Source of the DNA: an uncultured Dehalococcoidia bacterium
GTDB lineage: Bacteria; Chloroflexota; Dehalococcoidia; SZUA-161
Direction of reading: 5' to 3'
NCBI GenBank assembly: GCA_964449845.1
Contig: CAYVES010000004.1
Span: 1-50,068, forward strand
Length of the DNA: 50,068 bases
Shown here: positions 12,025 through 45,245 of the stretch, piece after piece
Layout of the letters: every line of letters starts with the position of its first letter
How positions within the stretch are numbered: position 1 is the stretch's first letter
Made by a program: the position numbers and the translations under genes
Notes under the pieces: generated by a model
Seen by the model: the letters and a program-made list of their open reading frames with translations, nothing else
Databases searched by the model: none
What the model was told of the DNA's origin: nothing

Positions 12025-12240
12025 ATGCCAGAAGCGTATGTGAGAGGGGGAGCCCTTCGTTTTGACAATGGGCTTTGGGGGCCCACGCCAGGCTTGGTTT
12101 TTCCAAACCCGTGCTTTCAACCGTGCTTTCAAAAAGTATTATAAGGTCGTTACGTTTGATAACAGAGGCGCTGCGTTTGGAAAAAACAGATAAGCCAAGC
12201 AGCCCCTACACCACGAAGACGATAGCGGATGATACAATGT
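12025..12240 (+). pseudogene. Decayed 5' fragment of an alpha/beta-hydrolase gene
   Basis: AAAGGAG RBS plus ATG at 12025. The reading gives MPEAYVRGGALRFDNG..., then YYKVVTFDNRGAAFGK, and after a 1-nt frame shift TDKPSSPYTTKTIADDTM. This is the xVxxxDxRGxGxSDKP...Y..xxxADD pattern. It has premature stops, a 12-nt tandem duplication (cgtgctttcaac/cgtgctttcaaa), and ends abruptly at the recombinase remnant. Confidence 0.45.
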
Positions 12241-12664
12241 AGTCCCTGTAGCCAAGCTTCATGCGGCCCTTGAGACAGGCAAGGTTGCTTTGGATGACCT
12301 GGCTCCACGATTGAAGGAACTCAGAGTCCAGCAGCGGGAACTCCAGGAGAGGCGCGATGAACTGCTGGACAAGATGAATAGTGAGAGCACTCACGTACTG
12401 GACCTCAAGGCGACACTGGAATATGCTTCAGACCTGAAAAACCTACTGAACAGTGCTTCTTTCTTGGAGCAGAAGGCATTTCTAAGGTCGTTCGCCAAGA
12501 TGGTGGAGTTCAACCTGCCTGAGGTTGCCATCGACTACACGATACCTCTACCCCTTGAGGACGGGTTGACCAGTACGAGTGAAGTTCTGCGTATCAACAA
12601 GAATGGCTCACCAAACAGGACAAAAGGTAAAACTTTTGAGAAGACTTTCGCCCTGGCCTACTGA
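12233..12664 (+). pseudogene. 3' remnant (~143 codons) of a large serine recombinase gene; catalytic N-terminal domain absent
   Basis: The open frame encodes ...ALETGKVALDDLAPRLKELRVQQRELQERRDELLDKM...EQKAFLRSFAKMVEFNLPEVAIDYTIPLP. This is the coiled-coil/C-terminal region typical of large serine recombinases. No resolvase domain lies upstream, and the frame opens right after a stop at 12230. Confidence 0.6.
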
Positions 12665-12788
12665 CGAAAGGGAGTCGCCTTAGGTGAGCTTAACTGGAAG
12701 ATATCAAGAGCTTCTAGGCTGCCATTTGCTCTCTTGCCGATTATCCAACAGAATGCACAAACGTTGAGCCAATTGCACCAAATGGACA
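12521..12788 (+). repeat. Left copy of a ~270-300-bp direct repeat (recombinase 3' end plus ~125 bp downstream)
   Basis: Aligns by eye to 44761-45058. Shared strings include ctacacgatacc, gaatggctcacca, ctgacgaaaggga(g/c)tcgccttaggt, gaagatatcaagagctt, ctcttgccgatt and gttgagccaattgcaccaaatggac. Confidence 0.8.
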
Positions 12789-12820
12789 AATGTGCAATCG
12801 TGGGAAGGGCGAATCTATTT

Positions 12821-12861
12821 GGGCTCATGATTCAGGGTAGGAGGTAGATGTTTGAGAGAAT
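12821..12861 (+). repeat. 41-bp direct repeat, copy 1 (RBS plus MFERI start)
   Basis: ggctcatgattcagggtaggaggtagatgtttgagagaatt matches 20196-20236 at 37/41 positions. Confidence 0.75.
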
Positions 12862-12946
12862 TTCGACGAACTGCCCTTCCCCTAACGGGATGGGCGAATT
12901 CCCCCTCCCCTTAATCCGCTCCCCCCAACGGAAGGGAACTACACGG

Positions 12947-13699
12947 TCACTGGTCATCACTCGCTACAGACAACCTGCGTGGCAACTGTGTACTCCCAGG
13001 CTCGCTCGATATTCTCCAGTTGAATCTCTTCTTGAACCTCTCCAGAATATCAATGGTTTTCATACCAAAAAGCCAGAGGAAGACGGCGTTACCAATTGCA
13101 TGAAAGGTATCGAACCATATGCTGGTGACCTGATACGTCAGGAATGTCCTCAACGTGAGGGGATAGATGAAGGAAGCCCAATACCATGTGTTCATTATCC
13201 ATCCATAAACATAACCGCCAACGATGCCGAAGAAAACCAGCCATATCCTCCCCAGGTGGAATCGCCTGAGATAGGCGGCGGCAACCCCCAAAAATCCCCA
13301 GGCCAACATCTGATACAGTGTCCACGGCCCTTGGCCGAGGAAGAAGTTGGAGACAAGGGCTGTTATCGCTCCAACCATAAACCCGGCCACCGGGCCGAAT
13401 ACGTATCCAGAGCACATTATGAGATAGGTACATGGCTGCACGCTAGGTATGGCAGCAAAAGGAATCCTGAGGACAGCGGATAGGGTTCCTAGCATCGCTA
13501 CAAGCGCTACTTCCTTTGAACTTATAGCCGCCGCCTCGAACTCGAAAAAGAAGGCTATGATAGCCAGCATAACAATTATGGTCGCTGCCAGCCCCCAGTT
13601 CAAAAGACCACTTGATGAGCCCGTTGAGAACAGGGGGACGACAAAAGCAGCTATCCCTGCAGCGGAAATAAGCGCTAGAAACAAGCGACTCTTCTTCAT
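12947..13699 (-). CDS. ECF transporter S (substrate-capture) component-like membrane protein
   Basis: 250 aa and polytopic. Carries LRIPFAAIPSVQPCTYLIMCSGYVFGPVAGFMVGAITALVSNFFLGQGPWTLYQMLAWG, the usual S-component core. It overlaps the ATPase gene by 4 nt. Confidence 0.6.
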   Translation of the reverse strand: MKKSRLFLALISAAGIAAFVVPLFSTGSSSGLLNWGLAATIIVMLAIIAFFFEFEAAAISSKEVALVAMLGTLSAVLRIPFAAIPSVQPCTYLIMCSGYVFGPVAGFMVGAITALVSNFFLGQGPWTLYQMLAWGFLGVAAAYLRRFHLGRIWLVFFGIVGGYVYGWIMNTWYWASFIYPLTLRTFLTYQVTSIWFDTFHAIGNAVFLWLFGMKTIDILERFKKRFNWRISSEPGSTQLPRRLSVASDDQ

Positions 13700-15372
13700 T
13701 TCAGTATGTCCAGTGCCTCGTCAACAGTCAGGATGTTATTGGGAACCCCATACTTTTCAAACGCCTGTACGAGACGGTTTATCTGAGGGGAGAAGAACAG
13801 TGCCTGCGAGAGGACGTCCCGTTTGTTACCGTCCACCACAACCCTGCCCTCGCTGAGCAACACTACCCTGTCCGCGTATTCCGCCACCGTCTCCACATCA
13901 TGGGTGACCAGAACTACAGTGTTACCATTCTCCTTGTATCTACGCAGGAAGCGCATCAGATCGCTCTTGAGCCTGTATTCCATCCCCCTGGTTGGCTCAT
14001 CCAGAATGAGCACCTCGGGCCTGGCGACAAGAACAGATGCCAAAGCGACCCTTTGTCTCTCGCCACCGCTCAACGAGCGCGGGTAATGCCTCCTGTACTC
14101 TTTCAGCTCAAACATCTCCAGCATTTCATCAACCCTCGCTGCTATCTCCGCACGATCGAACCCTAGGTTCTTCAGGATGAAGGCGATCTCTTCCTCAACA
14201 GTATCAGCGAAGAGGTGATCATTGGGATTCTGGAAGACGAAGCCAACCTTCATCGCTAGCTGAGCGATGGTAGCCCTCTGAGTGTCGATTCCAGTAACCC
14301 TCACCTTTCCCATCGTCGGCTTCAACAGGCCATTGATATGTTTGACCAGAGTTGTCTTCCCAGATGCGTTCCTGCCCATAATAGCAACGAATTCACCACC
14401 ACGTACACTCAAACCCACATTCTTCAGGGCGGCAAGCCCCTCGGGATAGACATGCCACAGCTTGTCCATCTCAATTACCGGCTTGGCATTATTAGCGCTC
14501 TTAGCCTGAGGCAATGCGCTTGCCTTTGCCCCCTTGAAGATGTCTTTCAGTATCGACCTCCCCTCCTTGACAGTCAGGGGGATGTGATCGATATCGAAAC
14601 CGTTGCTCTTTAGCCGCTGGACCATCCTGACAATCGGGGGGGCTCCGCCAACAACATTGGTTATGTCGCCATTGCACATAACTGCCCTAGGGTTCCCATC
14701 GGCAACTATTCTGCCCTCATCCAGCACTATCATCCTGTCCACGAGATGGGCCACCCTATCCAGCCGGTGTTCAACCAGTATGACCGTTATGCCCAACTCA
14801 TCATTGAGGCGCTGTACAACAGAAAGCACCTCTTCAGCGCCCTTGGGGTCCAGCTCCGAGGTAGGCTCGTCCAACACTAGAACATCCGGATGCAGCGCCA
14901 GGACAGAGGCTATGACAACCCTCTGTTTCTCGCCTCCGGAGAGTTCATGCACCTGCCTGTAGCGAAGGCCCGAGATTCCCAGCGTATCCAGAGACTCCTC
15001 CACCCTTTTGGCTATAACACCTTTGGGAAAGGCCAGGTTTTCCAGGCCGAAGGCGATCTCCCGCTCCACATCCATGGCGACAAGCTGGTTCTCAGGATCC
15101 TGGAAAATCATGCCCACCCTGGTGGCCAGCTCCTTGGTGGTGTGCTTCATCACGTCGAGACCCTGCACCTCCAAACCCCCCGCTATCTTCCCTCCATAAA
15201 AATGGGGGATCAAGCCGTTGAGGCAGCGGCAAAGGCTGGATTTGCCACAGCCAGAGGGGCCCGTCACCAGGACGAACTCGCCATCTTCAATCTCAAGATT
15301 CACATCCTGAAGAGCCGGCTTGCCGGCATCCCCGTAGTGGAAGGTTAAATCCCTTATCCTAATCAAGATCAA
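13696..15372 (-). CDS. ecfA: ECF transporter ATPase, fused EcfA-EcfA' (two ABC domains)
   Basis: 558 aa. Two Walker A motifs (GPSGCGKSS, GRNASGKTT), two LSGGxxQR signatures (LSGGEKQRV, LSGGERQRV) and two Walker B motifs (LVLDEPTS, LILDEPTR). Confidence 0.9.
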   Translation of the reverse strand: MILIRIRDLTFHYGDAGKPALQDVNLEIEDGEFVLVTGPSGCGKSSLCRCLNGLIPHFYGGKIAGGLEVQGLDVMKHTTKELATRVGMIFQDPENQLVAMDVEREIAFGLENLAFPKGVIAKRVEESLDTLGISGLRYRQVHELSGGEKQRVVIASVLALHPDVLVLDEPTSELDPKGAEEVLSVVQRLNDELGITVILVEHRLDRVAHLVDRMIVLDEGRIVADGNPRAVMCNGDITNVVGGAPPIVRMVQRLKSNGFDIDHIPLTVKEGRSILKDIFKGAKASALPQAKSANNAKPVIEMDKLWHVYPEGLAALKNVGLSVRGGEFVAIMGRNASGKTTLVKHINGLLKPTMGKVRVTGIDTQRATIAQLAMKVGFVFQNPNDHLFADTVEEEIAFILKNLGFDRAEIAARVDEMLEMFELKEYRRHYPRSLSGGERQRVALASVLVARPEVLILDEPTRGMEYRLKSDLMRFLRRYKENGNTVVLVTHDVETVAEYADRVVLLSEGRVVVDGNKRDVLSQALFFSPQINRLVQAFEKYGVPNNILTVDEALDILK

Positions 15373-16285
15373 TCCTCCTCTTCAAGAAGGCCAGGAAAAC
15401 CACCGACGATACCGTAAGCACCAGAATTGGCAGCATTGACCATTCTGGACCGCTGAGATTCATCCCTCCCAGGGTCGGGTAGTATTGATAACCGCCGTAT
15501 CCTAAGATCAACATGAGGATGCCGAGAGCACAGGGGGCAAACCCAAATATCAATGTGATGATATCGATGCGGCTCGTTCTTATGTCCTTGTACAGCGTCC
15601 TCTTCCTCCCGCTGCCAAAGGCCCTCGATTCCATCGCCTCCGCAATTTGAACCGTTCTATCCAGGGAGTTGGAGAGCAAAGGAATTATGATTGACATACG
15701 TCCTTTGATCCTTCGCGGTAGCCTCCCTTTGTCGAGTTCCAAACCCCTTGACCGCTGAACATCGGCAATCCGTCCCACATCGTCGATAAGAGTGGGAACA
15801 AACCTGGTGGCAAGCGCGGTTACCAGCACCGACTTGTAGGGCAGCTTCATCCTGATCATCGAGAGCATCATGTCGTCTGGATTTATAGTGAGAGTGAGTA
15901 TGGCAAAGGCTGAGATTATCGCCAGCAATCGTATGGACATCGCGATGCCGTAGAGAATGGCCTCCAGTGTTACTATGGGAGTGCCCATCACAGGGATGCG
16001 AAAGGGGGCTTCCGCCAGGACGTGTGAGCCATTGTAGCTAACCAGAGCGTTTACCACTATTATCGCCAGACAGAGGTAGATGGCGAACTTCATGAAAGAG
16101 GTCCACTCTTTCCACACCTGCGCTGTTATCACCAGCGGCAACGTTGACAGGAATAACAGGAATAGAAAAAGGGGATTGTCGAGGACGAGGGCAAGCACAG
16201 ACACGCTGACGACCCATGCCAGCTTGCAGAAGGGATTGAGCCTGTGGACTACTGTTCCCTTTTCTTTGTATCTGAAGCTTATCAC
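15359..16285 (-). CDS. ecfT: ECF transporter transmembrane component (EcfT/CbiQ family)
   Basis: 308 aa and polytopic. ATRFVPTLIDDVGRIADVQRSRG is the conserved coupling-helix region. It overlaps both neighbouring genes. Confidence 0.82.
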   Translation of the reverse strand: MISFRYKEKGTVVHRLNPFCKLAWVVSVSVLALVLDNPLFLFLLFLSTLPLVITAQVWKEWTSFMKFAIYLCLAIIVVNALVSYNGSHVLAEAPFRIPVMGTPIVTLEAILYGIAMSIRLLAIISAFAILTLTINPDDMMLSMIRMKLPYKSVLVTALATRFVPTLIDDVGRIADVQRSRGLELDKGRLPRRIKGRMSIIIPLLSNSLDRTVQIAEAMESRAFGSGRKRTLYKDIRTSRIDIITLIFGFAPCALGILMLILGYGGYQYYPTLGGMNLSGPEWSMLPILVLTVSSVVFLAFLKRRIDLD

Positions 16286-17229: not shown

Positions 17230-17249
17230 ATCGTGCTCATCCCGTCGCC

Positions 17250-19820
17250 CTACCTCCTTCTGAGCACCACAAAGCCCCCTAGGCCTACGACTAACACCGC
17301 ACCGATTACTCCTCCAATTACGCCCCAGGGCACTGCTGGACCATCCTCTGTCGCTGCCAGTGTGGGTGTAGGTGTGGGCACCGGTGTGGGTGTCGGTGCT
17401 GCCGTTGGCTCAGGCGTAGGTGTGGGTGCAGCAGTTGGCTCGGGAGTAGGTGTAGGCGACGGCGTAGGCGTAGGCAGAGGTGTCGGTGCCAGCGTAGGTG
17501 TGGGTGTCAGGGTCAGCGTGGGAGTCGGCTCTGGCGTAGGCTCTGGCGTAGGCACAGGGGGCACTACGGGTGGCGGCAGTGGCACTGCCTTGACCACGAT
17601 ATCGGCCTTATCGCTTCGAACGAAGCCATCGCTCCCGGCATAGAGCTGAAGACTACCGCTTTGGGCTATAGAGATCCCTACCGTGCCATCCGGCCCAGTC
17701 AGATAATCCTGGTCAGCATGCACCGTCGCCCCTTCGAGGGGAAGCCACACACCTGTGGCGTCGTCATAGTAGGTTACAGTAGCTGTGAACTCCTGGTTTG
17801 CGAAAACGCTCTGTCTATCCAAGGATAGCTTGAGTGGGGGCTCGCTCCAAGTGTTGCTTGTGTAGAATAGAACCTCCTGGTGGGGGGGATCTGGAGGAGT
17901 GGTTTCATTCAATATGAAGTCCGCCATTCCCACTTGAGCGAACTCATAGTCCACCCTGTACACTGGCCACGGCCCCGTGTCCCAATCGCCCTCTCCACTT
18001 ACTGAGGTAACGGCCAGGCCCCACCCGAAATCCCTCACCACATACGTGAAACCACCGGCCCGTGAAGCCTCATCAAGTGCGCCGAGGGCACTCGCATATG
18101 GCAGATAATGTGAACCGCCCTGGTCGTCCGCGATGTTTGAGAAGGAAACAGTAACATCTCCGCTCCAGATAGTCGCGTCCTGCCCCTCCACTCTCACATA
18201 GACCGATGCACTATCTACGCCAGTCACGTTCACGGTAACCTTGTCGCTTCGAATGAAGCCATCACTCTCGGCATACACCTCGAGGGTAGCTTCATGATCA
18301 ACAGCAATTTCCACCGTACCATCCGGTCCTGTCAGATATCCCTGGTCGGCATGCACCGTCGCCCCTTCGAGAGGAAGCCACGCCTCCACAGCATCGTCAT
18401 AGTAAGTCACAGTGGCAGTGAACACCTCACCAACCGTAACATCCGCCTTGTCCACAGCTATATCGAGCGGTTGCTCAGCCCAGGTAGTGCTCATATAGAA
18501 CAGAAGCTCCTGATGGGGTGGATTCGGAGGAGCCGTTTCATTCAATACGAAGTCGGCCATTCCCACTTGAGCGAATTCATAGTCCACCCTGTACACTGGC
18601 CACGGCCCCGTGTCCCAATCGCCCTCTCCACTTACTGAGGTAACGGCCAGGCCCCACCCAAAATCCCTCACCACATACGGAAAACCGCCAGCCTGTGAAG
18701 CCTCATCGAGCGCACCGAGTGCAGTTGGGTCGGGTAGATAGTGTAGACCACCCTGGTCATCTACTATGGTCGAGTCGATAACAGTCACGTCACCGCTCCA
18801 GATAGTCGCGTCCTGCCCCTCCACTCTCACATAGATTGAAACCGCTTCCTCCTGTTGCAGACCATCTACAGGATAATGCTGACCCAAAAGCGCTGGTATG
18901 GCATAGGAGGTCATCCATGCCACATTCAAGGGCGTGGCCGCCTGCCAGTTGAATGAGCCGTCAGGGTTGTGAAATGTCAGCAGGTCATCCACAGGGTCGG
19001 TACCATTTCCACTCCGCCAGTTAGTACCAGTCGGGTCCTGACCGGCTGCTACAATAGCAGCGATGCCCCAAGAATCTGTTCCGGCATTGGTTGCGCCCCA
19101 GGACTCGAAACCGCCGTTACCCATTTGCATCGACTTCATGTAGGCAAGACCATTCTGGACGACTGTTGAAGCCTGAGGCTCACCAGCCGCGACAAGAGCC
19201 ATTATCGCTGCCGCAGCATCATCCACATCGCTATCAGCCCCTACACCCCAGCTCCAACCGCCGTCGCTGTTCTGGTTAGCCTTGATAAAGGCCACTGTGT
19301 TTGTGACAATCTCTGAGGCCGGGTTTTTACCAGCAGCGATAAGCGCCATCAGCCCCCAGAAATCGTCGTTTAGTAGACCTGTATCACCGAGCTGCGTACC
19401 ATCGTAGGCCCCCTCGATCAAACCCACGAAATCTACACCACCGAAATTGGCCGGGTCCTCTCCCGCAGCGACTATCGCAAGTACCATCCTGGTATAATCG
19501 GTCACGCCGGCAGCAGTTCCAGCGTTCGCTGCGAGGTAATCAACCATAGAAGCCCCGCCACCAGAAGCCCACGTATGCGGGTCTTCTCCCGCAGCAGCTA
19601 TAGCCATGGTCGCCCAGCCCGATACTGCGAAATCGCTTATGCTACCGTCCGCACCCTGTTGTCCACGCAGATAGTCCAGCGCATTGGCTACCTCGGCATC
19701 TGCCGGCTGCAAAGGATATGGAGAATAAGCCAACGCTCTCGGAGCCACCAACATCGGTACCATGAGCACATATACCAGCAACACGCTGATGACAGTAGTG
19801 AACCTTACTTTCCTTGACAC
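17250..19820 (-). CDS. Large cell-surface protein: signal peptide, alpha/alpha-toroid (prenyltransferase/squalene-oxidase-like) repeats, 2x DUF4430-like/Ig-like module, PT-rich linker, C-terminal TM anchor
   Basis: 856 aa with a GTG start. Repeats such as [22 protein letters not shown] and DGGWSWG...[14 protein letters not shown] are present. Two 211-aa tandem modules follow, then an 80-aa PT linker and [25 protein letters not shown]. Confidence 0.78.
17343..17582 (-). repeat. Low-complexity Pro/Thr-rich linker coding region
   Basis: Encodes [22 protein letters not shown]...[27 protein letters not shown]. The Gly/Val-rich + strand ORF at 17233-17643 is its antisense shadow. Confidence 0.9.
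17578..18843 (-). repeat. Intragenic tandem duplication, 2 x 633 nt (2 x 211 aa)
   Basis: A run of about 85 nt, identical apart from one position near its start, recurs at an offset of exactly 633 nt (for example catagtccaccctgtacactggccacggccccgtgtcccaatcgcc at 17945 and 18578). The protein modules begin S(I/V)[18 protein letters not shown]. Confidence 0.9.
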
Positions 19821-20195: not shown

Positions 20196-20236
20196 GGCTC
20201 ACGATCCAGGGTAGGAGGTTAATGTTTGAGAGAATT
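20196..20236 (+). repeat. 41-bp direct repeat, copy 2
   Basis: ggctcacgatccagggtaggaggttaatgtttgagagaatt. It is preceded by the hairpin GTGAGCCG-n24-CGGCTCAC and followed only by a 12-codon ORF (MFERIAYQLILQ*). Confidence 0.75.
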
Positions 20237-20319
20237 GCGTATCAACTCATCTTGCAATAATCTAATAGGCATAGCCTCTAATGCCGTCTTATTTATAGAC
20301 CTATGGCACTATGGCTAAA

Positions 20320-20610
20320 TCAATCGCGAGGAGGGACTATAGGCCTGAATTCGTACTCTTTCCCTTCGCCCAAACTGAAAACAAGCTTATCCTCCGAGGC
20401 TTCCTTTATCCAGCCAGCATAAGCTCTAACATGCTCGAAATCATAGAAAGAAACGACGTGGGTAGCTTTGTGGCTGTCCTCTTCAATAACAGACTTCGGT
20501 GCAGATGCCTCCTCGAGATTTAGCTCCTGAAGCCTGAGGCGGAAACAGCGTCCCACTCTTCGATAGCACCCGGTCCGCATAATCAACCGATAGTACTGAT
20601 TAGGTATCAT
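20320..20610 (-). CDS. Hypothetical protein
   Basis: 96-aa ORF, 18 nt downstream of the preceding minus-strand gene. A purine-rich GAGGGGGAAGGGGG lies before the ATG. No recognisable domain. Confidence 0.35.
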   Translation of the reverse strand: MIPNQYYRLIMRTGCYRRVGRCFRLRLQELNLEEASAPKSVIEEDSHKATHVVSFYDFEHVRAYAGWIKEASEDKLVFSLGEGKEYEFRPIVPPRD

Positions 20611-20628
20611 CCCCCTTCCCCCTCAGAC

Positions 20629-21270
20629 TTACCCTATGCTCCTTGATCGCTCGCCAACCTGGCTTTTGGCCCGCGCCGCATCAAGCAGCAACCACGACCA
20701 CAACGGCCCGCCACGGCTCACCTTAACATACTTCACATCCCCGAAATCTCCGTTGAAGTCGTACCGCGCATAACATAAGGGCCACCAAGGGCTAGAACTG
20801 CAGCTAACGCTCCCAACCTCTGTCCAGTTGGCGCCGTCTGCGGACACATACACACTAAAGCGCGGAGATCCGCACCCCACCTTTGCCGCCCAGATGCTAA
20901 CCTCATTACAACCTATGACCATATCCACAGTACAATTGCCCGTGACCATGTCCCCGGCACGACTTCCTGTGCTCGCGATTTCGGTGCAATTCCCTATGGC
21001 TGTTTCCTCAAGCTCGATGCCGATCCAGCCCCCGTGCCATATCACCGCGCCATCGTCATCCTGTTCACCTAATGCGGCTTCAGCGAAAAGACAGCGATAT
21101 GATGCGAATACGCTCGCTCCGTAACTTTCACCCAAAGGCGATTTGACGCCAACGCAAGCAGTGATAGAAGTCTCCGCATCAGACCCATAAACATGCGTGG
21201 CATATGGCACTGCGCCTAAAACAACGCAGAGCAACAGGACGCCAAAGATAAGAAGTGATTTCCTGCTCAA
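20629..21270 (-). CDS. Secreted Cys-rich protein, C-terminal part resembling a galactose-binding/discoidin-like fold
   Basis: Signal peptide MSRKSLLIFGVLLLCVVLGAVPYA. The C-terminal FSVYVSADGANWTEVGSV...VKYVKV pattern supports the fold guess. Confidence 0.5.
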   Translation of the reverse strand: MSRKSLLIFGVLLLCVVLGAVPYATHVYGSDAETSITACVGVKSPLGESYGASVFASYRCLFAEAALGEQDDDGAVIWHGGWIGIELEETAIGNCTEIASTGSRAGDMVTGNCTVDMVIGCNEVSIWAAKVGCGSPRFSVYVSADGANWTEVGSVSCSSSPWWPLCYARYDFNGDFGDVKYVKVSRGGPLWSWLLLDAARAKSQVGERSRSIG

Positions 21271-21309
21271 GCTTCTTGCAACCCTCTCTTCAGCAGCTGC
21301 TTTACTTAA

Positions 21310-22038
21310 TCACACTGACTTTATTGCCCGGTAATAGAAAGCGCTGGTGCAGTCTCCGGCCGCTTGACCATTGGGGATGGAAATCCAGTAATAAGCCTGC
21401 GTAACACGGTCTTCAGATAGCGGCACTGCCACCAAATACCAAGTGACATAGCTTGTGGTCAGGATAGCAGCGCCGCTAGTGCTGTCAGTGTCGTTATACT
21501 TGACGTTCCCAATGCTTATGGTGCCGGGGCCGCTGAAGTCTGTGCCCTTGACCTGGACATCGACATCCACATTAGTCTCACTACCGATGGTCAGGGTGAC
21601 AGCGCCCTGCGCTCCACCCCAGTTGGCCTGGTGGTCTTCCTCTCCCGGATTAACAGTACCAAATACTATACCGTCGTTGTTGTAATCAGTCACAGTGAAG
21701 GAGATAACCTCCGTAGGAGTAGGCGTCGGGGTAGGCGTTGGAGTAGGGGTAGGCGTTGGAGTAGGGGCGGCAGCCTCTATATAGGTGACACCTATCTTGC
21801 TCAGGACCGGAGTCCTCCCCGGCTCAGTGGTGCCGAGGAAGGCCTTGTACTTGATATAGCGGTCGCCATCATGCCCTGACCAGATATCAGTGCCGCTGAT
21901 CGTATAGTAGGTGCTGGCCGTCCCGTCTGGCCCCAGAAAACTCCACGTAGAGTTATCATCGTTGGTCGCGATCTGGAATTTCACCTCTGTGCCCAACACA
22001 ATGGCAGCACACCAGAGCAGTTTGCCAAGAAAGGCCAC
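21310..22038 (-). CDS. Secreted/surface protein with a (TP)9 linker
   Basis: 242 aa with a GTG start and a short hydrophobic N-terminus. The motif [14 protein letters not shown]...RYIKYKAFL is followed by [22 protein letters not shown] and a beta-rich C-terminal domain. Confidence 0.5.
   Translation of the reverse strand: [242 protein letters not shown]
21713..21772 (-). repeat. (ACN-CCN)n microsatellite-like stretch encoding (TP)9
   Basis: The plus strand reads gtaggagtaggcgtcggggtaggcgttggagtaggggtaggcgttggagtagggg. Confidence 0.85.
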
Positions 22039-22220
22039 TCGTAGCGTCCTAGGGTGGACCAGGAAAACGGGTTTGTTGGGTGACTATGTCGGTTGGGGGC
22101 GCCAACGAAACTCCGTGTTTACCCAAGAAGGCGAAAACGTCGTTGGTGTCTATCGGTTTTTCATCGTAGCTAGAAGCTCCCGATCAGTATTTGGGGAGAA
22201 GATCGATTGGGGCGGGGATT

Positions 22221-22952
22221 GTGAGGGTTCTGATCATTGAAGATGACCTGGAGACTGTTGAGTCTGTTTCCATGGCCCTGCAGATACCCTGGCCGGAGGC
22301 TGAAATACTGTCCGCTCGCCTCGGAAAGAAAGGGATAGAGGTGGCGAAGAGTGAAGCCCCCGATATCATCATCCTTGATCTGGGTCTTCCCGATATAAGC
22401 GGCTTCGAGGTGCTGGAGCGAGTACGCCTCTCCGAGCCTGTGCCCATTATTGTCCTCACTGTTAGCGGGGAGGAAGCGAGCATAGTTAGGGGACTAGGTG
22501 AGGGGGCAGACGATTACATAGTCAAGCCCTGCGGACATCTCGAACTCCTGGCACGGGTGAAGGCCAGGATACGCGATAAGGACCGTTCGGGGGGAAAGTC
22601 ACCCCTCTTCTTCGGCCCGCTGAGCTTCAATCCCTCCAGACGCAGGCTTCTGAACGGAGGAAAGGAGCTAAACCTCACTGGAATCCAGGCTCGTATCATT
22701 CATTGCTTGATGAGAAAGAGGGGTAGTGTGGCGACCTGCTCCGGCCTTGCCCGTGCCGTATGGGGTGATGATTATCCCGGGTCTACATATAGCCTCAGGG
22801 TTCATATCAGACACCTCCGCCAGAAAGTGGAAGCAGACCCCAGTCACCCGCAGCTTATTCTCACCAAACGGGGCATAGGATACTTCGTGGCAAAACCAGG
22901 TGAACCTGATCGGAGTGGACCCATGAAACACCACGCCATGGAGGAAGTATAA
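22221..22952 (+). CDS. OmpR/PhoB-family response regulator (REC + winged helix); no cognate kinase adjacent
   Basis: VRVLIIEDD, IIILDLGLPD, VLTVSG and DYIVKP are the receiver motifs. The C-terminal LTGIQARIIHCL...VHIRHLRQKVE...ILTKRGIGYFV is the wHTH. The GTG at 22221 is preferred over the TTG at 22191. Confidence 0.85.
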   Translation: MRVLIIEDDLETVESVSMALQIPWPEAEILSARLGKKGIEVAKSEAPDIIILDLGLPDISGFEVLERVRLSEPVPIIVLTVSGEEASIVRGLGEGADDYIVKPCGHLELLARVKARIRDKDRSGGKSPLFFGPLSFNPSRRRLLNGGKELNLTGIQARIIHCLMRKRGSVATCSGLARAVWGDDYPGSTYSLRVHIRHLRQKVEADPSHPQLILTKRGIGYFVAKPGEPDRSGPMKHHAMEEV

Positions 22953-23234: not shown

Positions 23235-23441
23235 ATGGCGGTAGAGAAGACAATGGCTTCCGATACCCTGGTTGAGGTCATCGACCGAATCCTAGACAAA
23301 GGCATAGTCGTTGATGCCTGGGTGAGGTTGTCACTGGTGGGCATCGAGCTGCTCACCATCGAGACCAGGGCGGTGGTCTCTTCCGTTGAGACCTTCCTCA
23401 AATACTCTGAGGCGGTTGGTCTTACTGCGCAAGCAGCCTAG
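23235..23441 (+). CDS. gvpA: Gas vesicle major structural protein GvpA
   Basis: 68 aa. [52 protein letters not shown] is the near-invariant GvpA core. A strong RBS (AAAGGAAAGGAGG) is present. Confidence 0.97.
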
Positions 23442-23675: not shown

Positions 23676-24293
23676 ATGGGAAGCCCTATTGAAAATGTCA
23701 TCGATTCATATGAGGCGCGCGTAACGACGGTTGGCGCCCTGATGAGGCAAATGGTGGAGGTCTTGAAACGGTTTGACCTCGAGCAGGAAGAGAAGGTTAT
23801 GGAGCTGCGTGACCTCTTGGCTCGTGCCGAATCTTTGAGAAGAAAGGACTTCGACACATTGATGGCGGAAATCCGGGCTCGGCGAAGGGAAAAGGAGAAG
23901 AAGGTTGCCCATGCTCTTGACAGTTTCCTGAAGGAGCAAGAGGAGCTGGTGGCCTGGCTGAGGAAGGTCATCACCGATGGCGATATCGGGTTGGAGGAAT
24001 TCAAGGCCCTGAGCCACAGCATCCTCACCCGGCAGAAGGGGGCGCAAGGAGACCTCGGCAGAATGTTGAGAGAGCTGCACCTGGAGCACGAGGAGATGAA
24101 CATTGGTCTGCGGAAGCTTCTCCAGAAGGGGGAGCGGGTCCGCGTAGAGGACTTCAAAGCCATGATAAAGGCTATCCAGCTCAGGCAGGGAGGGAGACAG
24201 GATGAGGTAGGCAGAATGCTGGACGAGCTGTGGGGGGTTGATGAGGAGGTGGCCTCCCAGTGGCACAAGGTGATGAGTTCTATTAGAACCTAA
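23676..24293 (+). CDS. Coiled-coil protein with three ~45-aa internal repeats (candidate GvpC-like accessory protein)
   Basis: 205 aa. Three repeats: SLRRKDFDTLMAEIRARRREKE..., IGLEEFKALSHSILTRQKGAQGDLGRMLRELH and VRVEDFKAMIKAIQLRQGGRQDEVGRMLDELW. It is the first protein gene after gvpA. Confidence 0.7.
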   Translation: MGSPIENVIDSYEARVTTVGALMRQMVEVLKRFDLEQEEKVMELRDLLARAESLRRKDFDTLMAEIRARRREKEKKVAHALDSFLKEQEELVAWLRKVITDGDIGLEEFKALSHSILTRQKGAQGDLGRMLRELHLEHEEMNIGLRKLLQKGERVRVEDFKAMIKAIQLRQGGRQDEVGRMLDELWGVDEEVASQWHKVMSSIRT

Positions 24294-24650
24294 TCAAATA
24301 TCAAAGGAGGGAAGGAAGTGTCAAGGGCAAGTGATGTGAGAAGTCCAGCCCGGGACATTCCTCAAACGCACGGGGAGAGGGCCAAGCAAGTGGCGGAGAT
24401 AAAGGAAGACGTCAAGGCGCTGGTAAAGGTCATCCAGCTCGGGCAGGAGGGGAGACAGGATGAAGTAGGCAAGATGCTGGACGAGTTGTGGGGTGTTGAT
24501 CGGGAGGTGGCTATCCAGTGGCACAAGGTGATGAGTTCTATTAGAACCTAATCGAATATCAAAGGAGGGAAGGAAATGTCAAGGGCAAGTGATGTGAGAA
24601 GTCTGACCCAGGATATTGCTCAAGCGCACGACGATAGGGCTCAAGAGCAG
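24148..24650 (+). repeat. Tandem duplication with a 258-bp period (about 1.9 copies)
   Basis: tggcacaaggtgatgagttctattagaacctaatc(a/g)aatatcaaaggagggaaggaa(g/a)tgtcaagggcaagtgatgtgagaagtc occurs at 24261 and 24519. The unit spans the 3' end of the 205-aa gene, the intergenic RBS and the 5' end of the next gene. Confidence 0.88.
24318..24551 (+). CDS. Chimeric 77-aa ORF created by the 258-bp duplication
   Basis: The N-terminal MSRASDVRSPARDIPQTHGERAKQVAEIKE matches the N-terminus of 24576-25244. The C-terminal QLGQEGRQDEVGKMLDELWGVDREVAIQWHKVMSSIRT matches the C-terminus of 23676-24293. GTG start, same RBS. Confidence 0.5.
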   Translation: MSRASDVRSPARDIPQTHGERAKQVAEIKEDVKALVKVIQLGQEGRQDEVGKMLDELWGVDREVAIQWHKVMSSIRT

Positions 24651-32551: not shown

Positions 32552-32926
32552 ATGGCGCTAACGGCGGAAAAGGACTCAGGCGGAACCCTGGCTGATGTCA
32601 TCGACCGGGTTCTGGACAAAGGGCTGGTAATTAACGCCGACATCACCGTGTCTCTGGCTGGGGTGGAGCTATTGGGCATTAAGATAAGGGCAGCCCTGGC
32701 TTCTTTTGAGACGGCAGCCAAGTATGGCCTGGAGTTTCCCTCGGGGACAAATTATGAGACCGCTGCCTGGCAGGAGGCTACAGTTGCCAAAGAGGAATGT
32801 CCCCAGTGTGAGAAGAGGGTGCACCTGGATGAACTCCTCAACGAGGGGTGCCCGTGGTGCGGCTGGGTCAGCGCCAAGGCCAAGGCAATCCGCGCCAAGG
32901 CAACTCCAGAGATGGAAGCCCGCTAA
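32552..32926 (+). CDS. gvpJ: GvpA/GvpJ-family protein with C-terminal zinc ribbon
   Basis: TLADVIDRVLDKGLVINADITVSLAGVELLGIKIRAALASFETAAKYG is the GvpA/J core. CPQCEKRVHLDELLNEGCPWCGW follows. Confidence 0.85.
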   Translation: MALTAEKDSGGTLADVIDRVLDKGLVINADITVSLAGVELLGIKIRAALASFETAAKYGLEFPSGTNYETAAWQEATVAKEECPQCEKRVHLDELLNEGCPWCGWVSAKAKAIRAKATPEMEAR

Positions 32927-36219: not shown

Positions 36220-36220
36220 G

Positions 36221-36392
36221 GTGACAAGGGTTCAGGGCCTCGGAATGGCACATTCCAGGTGTCATTGCGAGGAGTGATAGCGACGCGGCACTCTAGGGCG
36301 TGGTAGGGAGGGATAGAACGATGAGATTGCTTCGCTTCGCTCGCAATGACCAGGGGGTGTGGGGCTCAGAATGACAAAGGAGAAGGGGCAAG
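36221..36392. repeat. REP/MITE-like GC-rich palindromic element, copy A
   Basis: ...ggcacattccaggtgtCATTGCGAGgagtgatagcgacgcggca...gggagggatagaacgatgagattgcttcgcttcgCTCGCAATGaccag... Inverted CATTGCGAG/CTCGCAATG arms are present. About 170 nt align to 36813-36995. Confidence 0.8.
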
Positions 36393-36393
36393 G

Positions 36394-36741
36394 ATGAGAG
36401 AGTTCCTGCGAGAGGGAGAACAGACTATCATGTCCACTCCGGGAGCCATTGATATCGGCACCCTTGACGCCCTGTGGAGAATGGGGAATCTCCACCTCAC
36501 CGATAAACGGGTGTTTTTTGAGCGCCAGGGGAAAATCCAGTTTGCCTCCTTCCTCGAGGATGTGGTGGATGTCAGGCTGGAGATGAGGAAATGGATACTG
36601 CAGCATATCAGGCAGCTTTGCATATCCTACCGAACCACACCCGATGGCCGTGTCCGGGTGGCATATGTCGCCGTCAGGTCGCCTGTGGGCTGGCAGAAGG
36701 CAATCAAGGATAGGATGACTTTCGCCTTGATAGGGACCTAG
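36394..36741 (+). CDS. Stand-alone PH/GRAM-like domain protein
   Basis: 115 aa from the ATG at 36394; upstream codons of the track ORF lie in the REP element. MGNLHLTDKRVFFERQGKIQFASFLEDVVDV resembles the two PH/GRAM-like modules of 37020-38132. Confidence 0.6.
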   Translation: MREFLREGEQTIMSTPGAIDIGTLDALWRMGNLHLTDKRVFFERQGKIQFASFLEDVVDVRLEMRKWILQHIRQLCISYRTTPDGRVRVAYVAVRSPVGWQKAIKDRMTFALIGT

Positions 36742-36812: not shown

Positions 36813-36995
36813 GAATGACAAGGGTTGAGGGCCTTGGAATGACAGAGGCATTCCAGGTGCCATTGCGAGGAGCGATAGCGACGTGGCAATCCCGGGGGTG
36901 GCAGGGAGGGATAGAACGAAGAGATTGCTTCGCTCGCAATGACGAGAGGTTGAGGGTCTCAGGATGACAGAAGGCGAAGGGCTCAGAGTGACAGC
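36813..36995. repeat. REP/MITE-like GC-rich palindromic element, copy B
   Basis: ...ggcattccaggtgcCATTGCGAGgagcgatagcgacgtggcaatcc...gggagggatagaacgaagagattgcttcgCTCGCAATGacgag... Extra related arms (gagcgaagcgaaggg / cttcggtcgcttcgctccctcagaatgac) lie at 36755-36815. Confidence 0.8.
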
Positions 36996-37019: not shown

Positions 37020-38132
37020 GTGGGAATGCAACCTACGGCGGCAACGGAATGTGGTGTAACCGATCTCTTAGAGAGGATTCTAGACAAGGGGCTGGTAATC
37101 CATGCCGACCTCATAGTCTCCCTGGCAGGGGTTCCTCTTGTCGGGGTTACTCTAAAGGCAGCCATAGCCGGGATGGAGACAATGCTGAAGTATGGCATGT
37201 TGACCGATTGGGATGAAAAGACCCGCGACTGGGCTCGAACGGAGCGGGAGGAATCTCGAAAAGCGAGCGGGGTCTTGAAAGACGGTGAAGAGGTTCTGAT
37301 CAGGATGTTCGGCTCCCACTGGTACAGCCGGGGCATCTACCGCAACTGGAGGCCGGGGCATCTCTACGTCACCGATAGGAGGCTTCTACTGTGGAGACCC
37401 TATCCCGGCGAGGTATTAACGGAGGTTCACTACGAGCTAATAAAAGGAATGGCTGTGGAGAGAAGGATAAATGTCGCCAAGAAGGAAACGGATTACCTTT
37501 ATATATTGCTCAAGGATGGCGAGGTGGTTCAACTCCATCCCACCGATGCTTCGGTGGTAAGAGAGGCTATTGAAAACAGGATGCAAACGCTGGGACTGCA
37601 ACTGGAGAGTTACCCAGCTATCCCGCCCGTTGATGAGGGGGCAGCCAGGTTCTTGACCCCTGGCGAGCAAGTTACCCACTGCGGCAGGATGTGGCACCTC
37701 GTGACCCAGCCCTCCCCGGGCGGAATCACCAGCGAGAAGTGGAAGCCGGGACACCTGTATCTAACCAACGAGAGGCTGTACTGGTATCACGACTTCGACG
37801 GCAAGGTGGACTGGGAAGCCCCCCGTGACAGCCTGGTTCATGCCACTGCTCAGTTAAAGAATCTCGGGGGTATGCTGAAGGAGAAGCAGGTCCTCAGTGT
37901 GCTGCACAAGACCGGGTCAGGTAACAGGGTAGCATGCTTCTCTGGCGTGCCGGTGGAGATGAAGGACTGGGAGGATGCCCTAGTAGATGTCATCAGGCAG
38001 CGCAGCGAACCCATGCCTGAGGACTGGGAACAGTGCCCCCAGTGCGGGGAGAAAGCGCCCCGAGAGAGGCTGGTAAAAGATGGCTGCCCGGTGTGCGGCT
38101 GGGTAAGCCCCAGGCTGACGCGAAGAGTCTAG
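37020..38132 (+). CDS. GvpA/GvpJ-family domain fused to two PH/GRAM-like domains and a C-terminal zinc ribbon
   Basis: 370 aa. VTDLLERILDKGLVIHADLIVSLAGVPLVGVTLKAAIAGMETMLKYGM is the GvpA-family core. WRPGHLYVTDRRLLLW and WKPGHLYLTNERLYWY mark two PH/GRAM-like modules. CPQCGEKAPRERLVKDGCPVCGW closes it. The start may be the ATG at 37026. Confidence 0.83.
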   Translation: MGMQPTAATECGVTDLLERILDKGLVIHADLIVSLAGVPLVGVTLKAAIAGMETMLKYGMLTDWDEKTRDWARTEREESRKASGVLKDGEEVLIRMFGSHWYSRGIYRNWRPGHLYVTDRRLLLWRPYPGEVLTEVHYELIKGMAVERRINVAKKETDYLYILLKDGEVVQLHPTDASVVREAIENRMQTLGLQLESYPAIPPVDEGAARFLTPGEQVTHCGRMWHLVTQPSPGGITSEKWKPGHLYLTNERLYWYHDFDGKVDWEAPRDSLVHATAQLKNLGGMLKEKQVLSVLHKTGSGNRVACFSGVPVEMKDWEDALVDVIRQRSEPMPEDWEQCPQCGEKAPRERLVKDGCPVCGWVSPRLTRRV

Positions 38133-40758: not shown

Positions 40759-40787
40759 TTGACATGTGTTTAATCATCTGTTATAAT
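40759..40787 (+). promoter_or_regulatory. Consensus sigma70-type promoter upstream of the HTH-Hsp20 gene
   Basis: TTGACA (40759-40764), a 17-nt spacer, then TATAAT (40782-40787). It lies 18 nt upstream of the ATG at 40805, so the leader is very short or absent. Confidence 0.62.
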
Positions 40788-40804
40788 GTCTGTGCAGGTG
40801 AGGG

Positions 40805-41500: not shown

Positions 41501-41517
41501 ACCCTTCACTGGGGGGA

Positions 41518-41640
41518 AGCGTTCAGCCGCTAGCTATCAATTCGTAGGGTGGGTGCAGCAGGGCGGAACCCACCAACCAGCGTTCAGCCGTCAGCTCTGG
41601 AAGGTGGGTTGCGTTTCGCTCCACCCACTTTACTATGCTG
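41518..41640 (+). repeat. Two tandem 61-nt units, each ending in a GGTGGGT...ACCCAC(C) hairpin (REP-like)
   Basis: agcgttcagccgctagct...GGTGGGTgcagcagggcggaACCCACC and agcgttcagccgtcagct...GGTGGGTtgcgtttcgctccACCCAC. An inverted gctgaac follows at 41651. Confidence 0.75.
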
Positions 41641-41682
41641 AGTGCTGATCGCTGAACACCTGCGAATCAGGAGGCAACAAAG

Positions 41683-43827: not shown

Positions 43828-44504
43828 GAAAACTCCTTTATGTCCCTATTATCCACACGGAGTCTGAACTGGGAAGCGTAGCTTCCGCTATCGAGAGCAG
43901 AAGCGCCGCTCTGGTTGGAGAGGAGAAATGGGCCAGACACAAGGAAGTAGTGGCAAAGTTCTGGGAGAACCTGGCTCACCACTTCGATTCTCTTGATGCT
44001 GCCAATCTCAAGATATATCAAGATGGTCTCCTCGCAGATGGCGAACTGGGCAGGAGGGTCGTCGAGGAGGCAGCAAAACGCGGCAGCAGGAATCACCAAA
44101 TCATCCTCAACCTTGTGGAGAAGGGCGCTGAGCTTATGAAGACCGAGGATACAGATCTCATCAAGGAGGAGTATAAACATATTATCCAGCTTGCTCAGTC
44201 CAAATCGGTTGTTGGGAAAAGCGTTGCCTTCACCAAGTATAAACTGCGCAAAGGTTCGCTGCTGAAGGAAAGGGATAAATTTGTAGCTGAAACGATCGAT
44301 CAAACGCTGAAGGAAGAGGAGACTGGCGTTCTCTTTATGGGGAGTCATCATGATGTTCTCCCTTATCTCCCGGAAGACATTGTAGTAGAGCAGGTCAAGG
44401 ACAGGGAAAGGATTAACCTTTACTTCAAGTATCTTATTTCAAGGATAAGTAGGAGAAGATTTGAGCAGTTGGCAGAATACGTTGCCTCCCTAACACAAAC
44501 CTAA
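43824..44504 (+). CDS. Hypothetical protein, start overlapping the stop of the Cdc48-like ATPase
   Basis: 226 aa with an ATGA overlap to the upstream stop. No recognisable domain. Confidence 0.6.
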
Positions 44505-44624
44505 GAACGGTGCCAGTTTCCAACTGAACAGTAGTCCATACTGTTAGATCTCTAACAGAGAGGCTGGGTACCTTCGGCAAACACAGCTCTTTGATAAACC
44601 CGAAAGCTATGATTGATACTTGCT

Positions 44625-44774
44625 CTACCCCTTCCCTATTCGGAAAACATTGGTGCCACAATTCGGGCACTCACCTTGGGTTGCTGGCTTCTTGTTCTTC
44701 ATGGTGATCTGTTTCGGGTTCTTGATCTCCACCTTTTTCCTGCACTTCATACAGAGTGTCGAGGTAGATGGCAT
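44625..44774 (-). CDS. Small zinc-ribbon protein (DUF5679-like)
   Basis: Reverse-strand 49-aa ORF: MPSTSTLCMKCRKKVEIKNPKQITMKNKKPATQGECPNCGTNVFRIGKG. I recall the C.KC+K...K.....TMKN..PA..G.CP.CGT..FRIGK pattern for this family of ~50-aa proteins. It is below the ORF-track cut-off, and the RBS spacing is poor. Confidence 0.55.
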   Translation of the reverse strand: MPSTSTLCMKCRKKVEIKNPKQITMKNKKPATQGECPNCGTNVFRIGKG

Positions 44775-44934
44775 TCACCTAGCGATCAACTACACGATAC
44801 CACTGGTGGCGGGCCCATACGAGGGAGAATTAACCGAGGCAGCGGCAGTTCTGCCTATCATACAGAATGGCTCACCATTGTGGACGAAAGGTAAAACCAA
44901 GACGTTCGAGAAGACGTTTGCCCTGGTTTACTGA
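44761..44934 (+). pseudogene. Second, shorter 3' remnant (~57 codons) of a large serine recombinase gene
   Basis: Encodes VEVDGIHLAINYTIPLVAGPYEGELTEAAAVLPIIQNGSPLWTKGKTKTFEKTFALVY*, paralleling LPEVAIDYTIPLPLEDGLTSTSEVLRINKNGSPNRTKGKTFEKTFALAY* at 12521-12664. Confidence 0.6.
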
Positions 44935-45058
44935 CGAAAGGGACTCGCCTTAGGTTAGCTTAACACGAAGATATCAAGAGCTTTTAGGCTAGTGTTTGCC
45001 CTCTTGCCGATTGTCCAACAACATACTATATCGTTGAGCCAATTGCACCAAATGGACT
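44761..45058 (+). repeat. Right copy of the recombinase-end direct repeat
   Basis: See 12521-12788. Homology ends at ...ccaaatggac in both copies. Confidence 0.8.
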
Positions 45059-45063
45059 ACTGT

Positions 45064-45245
45064 TCAGTCATGGGCAGAGATGACCCCTTCCCGCTCGAAA
45101 AGGGGGATACGCACAGCCAGACAATACTTGAATAGCAAGGGGCTCCAGAAGGACTTTTGTAGTGTGGGGAGGATATGATGGGCAGCACGTGCCACTGACT
45201 TAGCTCAGCGATCGTTTTTTCTCGTGCCTTCTCTGGTGTCATTTA
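45064..45245 (+). pseudogene. Possible decayed 3' fragment of an alpha/beta-hydrolase gene
   Basis: The frame reads ...SVMGRDDPFPLEKGDTHSQTILE*QGAPEGLL*CGEDMMG..., resembling the xVIxGxxDxxxPxxxxxxLAxxIPGAxLxVxxxxGH region. It carries in-frame stops. Weak evidence. Confidence 0.3.

Follow-up and report, generated by a model that had tools for sequence, protein, structure and literature searches.

The closest described systems to the locus reported here are the multiple tandem genomic islands found downstream of ssrA in Dehalococcoides (McMurdie et al., 2011; PMC3146451). In those islands, the serine recombinase DsiB has its attachment (att) site inside its own open reading frame (ORF), and the stop codon comes from the neighbouring island or from the target (PMC3146451). 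We analyzed a stretch of 50,068 nucleotides from an uncultured Dehalococcoidia bacterium (assembly GCA_964449845.1, contig CAYVES010000004.1, positions 1-50,068 of the forward strand; referred to below as the window), in which two direct repeats bracket about 32 kb carrying a transporter cassette and a gas-vesicle gene cluster. It was compared with contigs containing homologues, numbered L001 to L090. On balance, we read each repeat as the relic of a junction between neighbouring members of a tandem array of genomic islands with a DsiB-type serine recombinase.

A repeat finder returned the repeats as two pairs, i.e., 12629-12807 versus 44899-45077 (179 nt, 83% identity) and 12583-12633 versus 44847-44897 (51 nt, 82%), the second pair being offset by 6 nt relative to the first. 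With blastn, both pairs merged into a single match of 231 nt (80.5%, E = 5.6e-58), and no third copy was present in the window. In a MAFFT alignment, alignability began near 12521/44761. Two indels were seen, one of 9 nt and one of 6 nt; each keeps the reading frame and precedes a shared stop codon, and there was none in the ~145 nt past the stop. Because the indels are in frame and occur only before the stop codon, the two copies appear to have diverged as ORFs. Their conceptual translations end in …NGSPNRTKGKTFEKTFALAY (left) and …NGSPLWTKGKTKTFEKTFALVY (right), each followed by the stop. A preliminary description of this DNA had reported direct repeats at these positions, and all three methods agreed with it. 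The repeats and the sequence adjoining them comprise the following features:

12248-12603, forward strand: recombinase relic 1 (dLSR1), corresponding to residues 402 to ~520 of a 540-residue large serine recombinase (LSR), coiled-coil and C-terminal region

12604-12613, forward strand: putative att core 1 (TGGCTCACCA), where homology within the family switches partner; in metagenome loci, this core is also found behind tRNA-Ile 3' ends

12614-12664, forward strand: tail 2 (NRTKGKTFEKTFALAY, then stop), the last 17 recombinase codons, on the far (P') side of the core

12665-12807, forward strand: X module, left copy, ~145 nt, non-coding, always found after this type of tail; 83% identical to the right copy

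44680-44867, forward strand: recombinase relic 2 (dLSR2), residues ~457-520, more diverged and in frame with its tail

44868-44877, forward strand: putative att core 2 (TGGCTCACCA), 32,264 bp from core 1

44878-44934, forward strand: tail 3 (LWTKGKTKTFEKTFALVY, then stop), carrying a 6-nt in-frame insertion

44935-45077, forward strand: X module, right copy (repeat finder, blastn)

45078-45290, forward strand: a stretch of ~210 nt ending where homology to the closest relative, L007, resumes; window 45042-45155 is homologous to the region after the core in L003

The 143-codon left remnant was not recognized by Pfam; its homologues, which contain the zinc-ribbon domain PF13408, have been annotated as site-specific recombinases. 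In L002 the homologous segment is the 3' part of a gene with Resolvase and Recombinase domains, and in L001 it is the 3' part of a gene interrupted by an IS110 element. An intact LSR of 540 amino acids, with Resolvase (E = 1e-34), Recombinase (1.6e-25) and Zn_ribbon_recom (7.6e-16) domains in Pfam, is encoded in L033. With this protein as the tblastn query, window 12248-12616 matched residues 402-524 (78% identity, E = 3e-56) and window 44680-44889 matched residues 457-527 (36% over 74 amino acids, E = 8e-7). Residues 1-400 gave no match in the window, and no window ORF contained a Resolvase, Recombinase or zinc-ribbon domain (Pfam). Because only C-terminal residues of the L033 protein match, both copies are 5'-truncated relics of LSR genes, not genes. 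The preliminary description had likewise taken the repeats for recombinase 3' ends, which the tblastn matches to both copies support, and had noted the lack of a catalytic domain in the left copy, which holds for the remnants and for the window as a whole (Pfam scans, tblastn). Its length for the left remnant, ~143 codons, agrees with our measurement (~139-143), whereas the right remnant is ~85 codons long rather than 57. The left relic is 92% identical at the nucleotide level to a relic in L003. A second intact LSR ORF, of 610 codons, was found in L038; it has the Recombinase and zinc-ribbon domains and a YVRQS catalytic motif, and ends in …GSPNRTKGKTFEKTFALVY and a stop codon.

Solitary LSR relics were seen in unrelated contexts at window 12248, L003 ~1517, L064 9953 and L035 714. 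They begin at residues 402, 396, 386 and 386, respectively, i.e., at nearly the same point in the coiled-coil region, and all retain an intact tail; the 5' truncation is recurrent. Shorter relics of 10-30 codons were present in L040 and L041.

In seven loci (L001, L002, L004, L032-L034 and L037) a tRNA-Asn(GTT) gene lies antisense to the LSR ORF and shares sequence with its final codons; homology of these relatives to the window stops right after TGGCTC(A/C)CCA, which encodes …GSP. For L001-L004 and L032-L034 the homology ends at att core 1. The exact 10-bp core occurs only twice in the window, in direct orientation and 32,264 bp apart. JGI metagenomes, scanned with the left recombinase remnant, yielded 53 loci, of which ~48 match only the last 20-30 residues. 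The conserved tail (…TKGKTFEKTFALVY, then stop) was present in ~48 loci; the 53 were selected via the peptide TKGKTFEK, so that conservation there is by construction, while the flanking codons were unselected. When aligned on the core, the loci share a module, GGC(C/T)CACCA-N8-AAAAGGTAAAACTTTTGAGAAGACCTTCGC…stop, in three contexts. It lies directly after the CCA end of a forward-strand tRNA-Ile(GAT) in 8 loci (likewise after tRNA-Val in one locus, and elsewhere after fragments of tRNA 3' ends), behind a stretch of variable length coding for the LSR C-terminus, or behind other sequence. The stop codon is TGA, TAG or TAA at a fixed position, and the T, F and L codons outside the searched peptide vary synonymously, which argues that the tail is coding. 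No second tail motif occurred within 10 kb in any of the 48 loci, and the motif was not found in IMG/VR viral contigs.

Homology thus breaks at TGGCYCACCA, 17 codons before the stop, and the tail is detached at tRNAs and attached in L038; for these reasons we place the attachment site inside the 3' end of the recombinase ORF. The targets of this LSR family, judging from the sequences adjoining the core, are the 3' ends of tRNA genes (Asn in antisense; Ile and Val in sense). Centred on the core is an imperfect inverted repeat whose halves, ~65 bp apart, lie in the P arm (AAAGTTCTG…) and where the P' arm ends (…AGAAGACCTT), and the ~65-bp att consensus reads AAAGTTCTGCGTATTGTACACGGTGGCCCACCA/TCGTGGACAAAAGGTAAAACTTTTGAGAAGACCTT, the slash dividing its two parts.

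In the order that we propose for the family, a P arm made of the last ~11 codons before …GSP would be followed by the 10-bp core TGGCYCACCA, mimicking a tRNA 3' end, and then by a P' arm encoding the conserved tail of 17-19 residues. Integration into a tRNA 3' end would fuse the recombinase gene to the target on one side and leave its last ~17 codons beside the tRNA on the other. If a second island adjoined, its left end would resupply the tail, and the junction between the two islands would look unsplit.

Both window copies are unsplit, running from relic ORF through core, tail and stop codon into the X module, which fits junctions between two islands and not attL and attR. The left P arm is 90-92% identical to that of L003, an unrelated contig, but only 75% identical to the right copy. 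Because the left P arm is so much closer to L003 than to the right copy, the two copies are very unlikely to be a recent in-situ duplication. L003 also joins a left-type P arm to a P' side that is like the right copy (z = 8.2) and less like the left (z = 2.4). Since a left-type P arm there meets a right-type P' side, L003 looks like a junction from which the 32 kb is absent. The same comparison suggests that the repeat end at 12807/45077 is the break point of the left copy, not a host junction on the right. Taken together, the in-frame indels, the P-arm identities and the L003 junction argue that the two copies derive from distinct though related elements and that the 32,264 bp separating the cores form one unit. 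The two exact 10-bp cores and the L003 junction lacking this unit may reflect the short direct repeats of the target 3' end that separate islands in a tandem array; the neighbouring islands, however, have shrunk to a few hundred bases.

From left to right, the window would then consist of relic 1 joined to tail 2 and its X module, a 32.26-kb island (E2) holding an energy-coupling factor (ECF) cassette, a regulator and the gas-vesicle cluster, and relic 2 joined to tail 3 and the second X module. What the comparisons show is the identity of the relics, the architecture and tRNA targets of the family, the unsplit copies, the strain specificity and the state of the hydrolase; the history of E2 is inferred from them. 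E2 would have entered as one island via recombination at the cores, either by accretion, as in the ssrA islands, or by insertion into a relic site. The array would later have been trimmed or relocated, with deletions removing most of the neighbouring islands E1 and E3, the target tRNA and both catalytic halves. Because both recombinase genes are without these halves, the cargo would now be fixed. The fragment would sit in a strain-variable slot, with an old hydrolase pseudogene, not the recombinase target, as its left edge.

Several points weigh against a tandem array. Neither the window nor L007 contained a tRNA or tmRNA gene, and Rfam gave no relevant match in the window; the array is not at a recognizable target, so that extra deletion or relocation steps are needed. 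The boundaries relative to L007 (~12080 and ~45290) lie outside the cores, not at them, composition does not flag the block as foreign, and the homologous gas-vesicle module in other genomes is not beside this LSR. On its P' side, L003 is only modestly similar (64% over 118 nt). The crossover was positioned solely from the points where homology breaks, and none of the loci recovered had both ends of one intact element.

The left X copy is 93% identical to a sequence in L043, where it lies behind a tRNA 3' fragment between two metabolic genes. L040, L056 and L075 have in common only a left-end module resembling core, tail and X. The core-tail-X segment (~170-200 nt) thus behaves, in these three loci and L043, as a discrete left-end module elsewhere. 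Four candidate identities for X were rejected. Rfam (the whole window at the gathering threshold, and 12400-13000 at E <= 10) gave nothing relevant as a known RNA, and ARAGORN found no tRNA. As a decayed tRNA-Asn, its alignment to the L001, L002 and L004 tRNA beyond the 10-nt core was no better than that of shuffles (P = 0.08-0.63). As a structured RNA, three copies analyzed with RNAalifold showed no covariation on the forward strand and one compensatory pair of 41 on the reverse strand. As coding sequence, the differences were without codon periodicity (5/13/13, not significant). At the end of X (12776-12796 / 45046-45066), a 26-nt block is identical in both copies (CGTTGAGCCAATTGCACCAAATGGAC) and ends in CACCAAATGGAC, which by eye resembles the att core plus spacer (CACCAAACAGGAC). 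Homology between the left copy, the right copy and L043 breaks just past it, and the block may be a second, degenerate att-like site.

To the right, window 45042-45155 matches the region after the core in L003 (E = 2e-6) over 118 nt running across the end of the right repeat, and 45078-45290 probably continues the left end of a third island, the rest of which has been deleted. A c-di-GMP-II riboswitch in L083 (875-958, reverse strand) scored 58 bits, which exceeds the gathering score; a tail motif is ~330 nt away, and the two are probably unrelated.

Over window positions 5568-12043, and once more from ~45290 onwards, L007 and the window are 95-97% identical. Between these shared flanks L007 has a different cluster of 8.6 kb (family-2 glycosyltransferases, a GFO/IDH/MocA oxidoreductase and two radical-SAM proteins), and it has no recombinase trace or tRNA. 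The ~33 kb between the flanks of the window are missing from it, and the segment ~12080-45290 is strain specific, which supports the island of the preliminary description. That description had also suggested searching related genomes for an empty site with an intact hydrolase gene; none was found, L007 being only alternatively occupied. Nor could DNA inside and outside the block be told apart by tetranucleotide composition, with correlations of 0.82 (island versus core), 0.73 (core versus right flank) and 0.65 (a relative's other DNA versus core). The preliminary description had named such likeness in composition, coupled with the lack of an empty site, as telling against its proposal.

The hydrolase gene in question had been proposed as the integration site, with its two halves now outside the repeats. 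The left half is genuine:

12014-12239, forward strand: 5' pseudogene of an Est1-like alpha/beta hydrolase, residues ~8-76 of ~268, with the nucleophile elbow and the downstream part missing

An earlier homologue search with the merged hydrolase N-terminus had given no candidates; phmmer with 12044-12190 led to a family of Est1-like alpha/beta hydrolases of ~268 amino acids. Window 12014-12239 matched residues 8-76 (tblastn E = 1.8e-15; family hidden Markov model (HMM) E = 4.7e-17), a frameshift-tolerant profile alignment scored 146 (z = 50), and a reconstruction borrowing 14 residues from L007 matched PDB 6eb3 (E = 1e-10). The fragment covers the N-terminal beta-strand/HGxGG/DxRGxGxSDKP region and has frameshifts, as the preliminary description stated, and a 31-nt deletion relative to L007, which shares the same decayed start up to ~codon 30 (~12080). 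In L090, homology of an orthologue to the window runs as far as 12238, beyond which the orthologue reads …IGLMDHLG…GFSMGG. Because L090 continues where homology to the window stops, the window hydrolase is truly broken at codon ~77. The junction with the recombinase (12238/12248) is at recombinase codon ~402; being far from the att core, it is a deletion or an illegitimate join.

The stretch to the right (45067-45245), which had been put forward as the C-terminal region of the same hydrolase, gave no match in Pfam, PDB, tblastn or tblastx. It had no tblastn match to the hydrolase family at E < 1, and no DNA or tblastx similarity to L090, including the C-terminus of a tandem paralogue there. 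A frameshift-tolerant profile alignment of 44935-45290 scored 19.0, against 20.9±2.7 for dinucleotide shuffles (P = 0.76). With the hydrolase HMM, the top segment in the window other than the N-terminal one (44959-45132; E = 8, 2.9 bits) was not significant, and the C-terminal third (…APTLVIxGxxD…GGSH…SGRFNxEVLxFL) was not detected beyond the island. A likeness by eye of X and the right flank to the hydrolase middle or C-terminus (LDRLHxIKAPTLV…SGRFNxEVLxFL) was rejected, as it failed both the shuffled profile alignment and the L090 comparison. As far as could be tested, therefore, the two stretches do not come from one hydrolase family, an outcome that the preliminary description had itself named as refuting its proposal; the right stretch, being without hydrolase signal, is instead weakly homologous to the sequence after the LSR relic in L003, an unrelated context.

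Two features of the relatives adjoin this subject. In L090, the C-terminus of the tandem paralogue precedes the orthologous hydrolase (1-264 and 276-640), which has a frameshift near its GxGxSDKP motif at a position unlike that in the window; the hydrolase may have been decaying before the lineages split, or an A-run may be error-prone. In L007, an insertion of 170 nt (8310-8477) flanked by CATTGG and forming a long perfect hairpin (GGGTAGGTTGCCCGACGTCGGGCAACCTACCC) lies just upstream of the hydrolase start and is absent from the window.

The DNA between the repeats holds the following:

12808-44679: putative cargo of island E2 (Pfam scans), absent between the same flanks in L007

12947-19820, reverse strand: ECF transporter cassette with S, A-A and T components, DUF4430 and an 856-residue toroid-repeat surface protein

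20320-22038, reverse strand: three secreted or unknown genes (Pfam scans)

22191-22952: OmpR-type regulator (Pfam scans)

23235-44504: gas-vesicle cluster of ~21 kb with gvpA, gvpC-like repeats, gvpN, three gvpF/L genes, a gvpJ-like gene, gvpK and gvpO

In the ECF cassette, Pfam identified PF12822, PF00005 (twice) and PF02361 (CbiQ/EcfT) within 12947-16285 (reverse strand). Its putative link to vitamin B12 comes from DUF4430, and no cobalamin riboswitch was found in the window (Rfam). The cassette is bracketed by 44-bp direct repeats (89%) at 12822-12865 and 20196-20239. Each contains a ribosome-binding site and ATG-TTT-GAG-AGA-ATT; they enclose the whole 7.3-kb cassette, and the second copy opens an ORF of only 12 codons. 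The start of a forward-strand gene may have been the point of insertion. The surface protein has an internal tandem duplication of 633 nt (17606-18750; 77-83%) and a Pro/Thr-rich linker before its C-terminal membrane anchor.

The gas-vesicle cluster further holds ArsA, a DnaJ-like zinc-finger protein, Hsp70, a helix-turn-helix (HTH)-Hsp20 protein, CDC48 and u226, i.e., a full chaperone set. The Pfam matches were PF00741 (at 23235-23441, 32552-32926 and 37020-38132), a GvpN-like AAA_5, PF06386 (three times), PF05121 and PF05800. Judged by this gene content, it is a complete cluster in a Dehalococcoidia genome; in the literature we found only passing mentions of gvp genes in metagenome-assembled genomes of Chloroflexota. 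The module is syntenic with L085-L089 (65-88% amino acid identity), homology ending at the u226 stop codon (window 44504); its neighbours there are insertion sequence (IS) elements and tyrosine integrases, without this LSR. No locus with the LSR or tail shared cargo with the window. Three of the encoded repeat proteins are gvpC-like, with 24147-24657 holding a 258-nt tandem repeat; one of the three gvpF/L genes is fused to a DnaJ domain, and u226 is a conserved protein of 226 amino acids with >360 homologues. Two repeats of ~135 nt (36251-36389 / 36849-36982; 79-90%) with internal palindromes (CATTGCGAGGAG…CTCGCAATGAC) flank a small ORF at 36346-36741 and look like an element resembling miniature inverted-repeat transposable elements (MITEs).

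How the 32 kb came to lie between the repeats can also be explained otherwise. Integration of one or more serine-recombinase elements into the alpha/beta-hydrolase gene, as first proposed, now seems very unlikely. A genuine hydrolase 5' fragment does abut the left relic, and the best HMM segment other than the N-terminal one falls at 44959-45132, albeit at E = 8 and 2.9 bits. Set against this are the absence of any hydrolase signal in the right stretch, the targeting of tRNA 3' ends by the LSR family, the unsplit state of both junctions, and a hydrolase-recombinase join at codon ~402, away from the att core. In addition, L007 carries the same pseudogene without the LSR, and the counterpart of 45042-45155 accompanies the LSR relic in L003, where there is no hydrolase. 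What survives of the original proposal is a site-specific island, on account of the strain-specific block and the recombinase ends; the hydrolase gene as its integration site does not. The likeness that it drew to tandem serine-recombinase islands of Dehalococcoidia was apt, in view of the published ssrA islands.

The main rival, which is less likely but retains a substantial share of the probability, is that the relics are independent features of a mosaic flexible island, the 32 kb having been built piecemeal by homologous replacement via the flanks, IS activity and deletions, so that the repeats bound no mobile unit. The replacement boundaries with L007 outside the repeats, the separate 44-bp repeats of the ECF cassette, the uniform composition and the occurrence of the gas-vesicle module beside IS elements and tyrosine integrases without this LSR would all fit this, as would the frequency of solitary 5'-truncated LSR relics with an intact tail (L041, L064, L003, L040). 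It does not sit easily with two ends of the same orientation and module structure, or with the left-type P arm and right-type P' side of L003, which look as though the 32 kb had been left out with precision; this is just the pattern that tandem DsiB islands produce. An in-situ segmental duplication of a single recombinase 3' end, followed by divergence and involving no second element, is improbable in the extreme: it would account for two directly oriented copies on one contig, but these differ by ~18% with in-frame indels, and the left copy is far closer to other genomes (L003, 90-92%; L043, 93% in X) than to the right copy.

Outside the block, the left flank contains a CoA transferase, two pairs of methylmalonyl-CoA-mutase-like genes and a DUF362 gene. 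Its synteny is kept in several Dehalococcoidia and stops after DUF362 except in L007; exact-protein look-ups of the flank genes gave nothing useful. A 163-nt direct repeat (5459-5621 / 7148-7310; 92%) surrounds an FAD-linked oxidase gene (5685-7061, reverse strand) and copies the 3'-terminal part of the mutase gene at 7160-8893. At this place in L008, only ~90 nt separate the B12-binding and mutase genes. Because of the repeat and this short gap, the SIR2-like and oxidase genes appear to have been inserted, with duplication of the 3' end of the mutase gene. In the right flank, a 72-nt repeat (45480-45551 / 46295-46366; 75%) occurs upstream of tandem membrane-protein genes and again upstream of a histidine-kinase operon, and may be a shared leader or promoter element. 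The tandem genes are paralogues encoding single-pass membrane proteins of ~60 amino acids (MEWQVVL…), and a further repeat pair (45591-45702 / 45823-45934) lies in the same region.

Decayed integrase ends around a strain-specific island are ordinary, and a recombinase completed by its neighbour was described in 2011. What is new is the set of tRNA targets, an explicit tail and att consensus, the wide spread of solitary relics, and the gas-vesicle and ECF cargo. The tandem-array reading extends the picture of a recombinase overlapping its att site, with tandem accretion, from ssrA to tRNA, and the missing 3' gene fragment is identified as the tail. It provides a concrete way to date and delimit a horizontally acquired block in an uncultured Dehalococcoidia genome, and the block's gas-vesicle cluster and transporter cassette are traits hardly documented in Dehalococcoidia. 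The ~65-bp att consensus can be used to locate island boundaries in metagenome-assembled genomes, and correcting the hydrolase target averts misled searches for empty sites. We regard it as unlikely that the conserved tail is a functional switch across a multi-target island family (tRNA-Asn, -Ile and -Val) and that the 32-kb island is cis-mobilizable rather than dead cargo. Were this so, only the free circle, or a neighbouring island that supplied the tail, would give a complete enzyme; the recombinase would be reprogrammed by integration and tandem accretion, and a related recombinase acting in trans could still use both intact att-like sites of the window.

By its published description, DsiB shares with the present family a recombinase of ~540 amino acids at the island edge, a 3' end that overlaps the att site, and a stop codon supplied by the neighbouring island or the target. 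Tandem accretion, decay in place, a Dehalococcoidia host and strain-specific cargo are further points in common. The differences are that the window family targets tRNA 3' ends (Asn antisense; Ile and Val sense), whereas DsiB targets ssrA; that no target gene remains in the window; that the window has no Pfam signature of the DsiA, RecF, ParB or Mom integration-module genes; and that its cargo is an ECF cassette and a gas-vesicle cluster, not rdhA.

The large serine integrases of phages and integrative and conjugative elements (phiC31, Bxb1, A118 and SPbeta, as well as CcrAB of SCCmec) have the same order of Resolvase, Recombinase, zinc ribbon and coiled coil, and use short att sites with an imperfect outer inverted repeat, as here (AAAGTTCT … AGAAGACCTT). 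To our knowledge, attP in those systems lies beside the integrase gene, not inside it, and our literature searches did not contradict this; in the present family, by contrast, integration would alter the C-terminus of the enzyme. In the SSV1-type tyrosine integrases of archaea and in the integration-dependent immunity of mycobacteriophages, integration cuts the element's own coding sequence, so that the integrated and free forms encode different proteins. Those systems differ from the one described here in using tyrosine recombinases, and the genes are cut in the middle of int or at the 3' end of the repressor. With replacement-type flexible islands, the locus has in common that the window and L007 share flanks of 95-97% identity around cargoes of 33 kb and 8.6 kb, that of L007 being of glycosylation type. 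Unlike them, which can do without such features, the window cargo comes with att sites and relics of site-specific recombinases.

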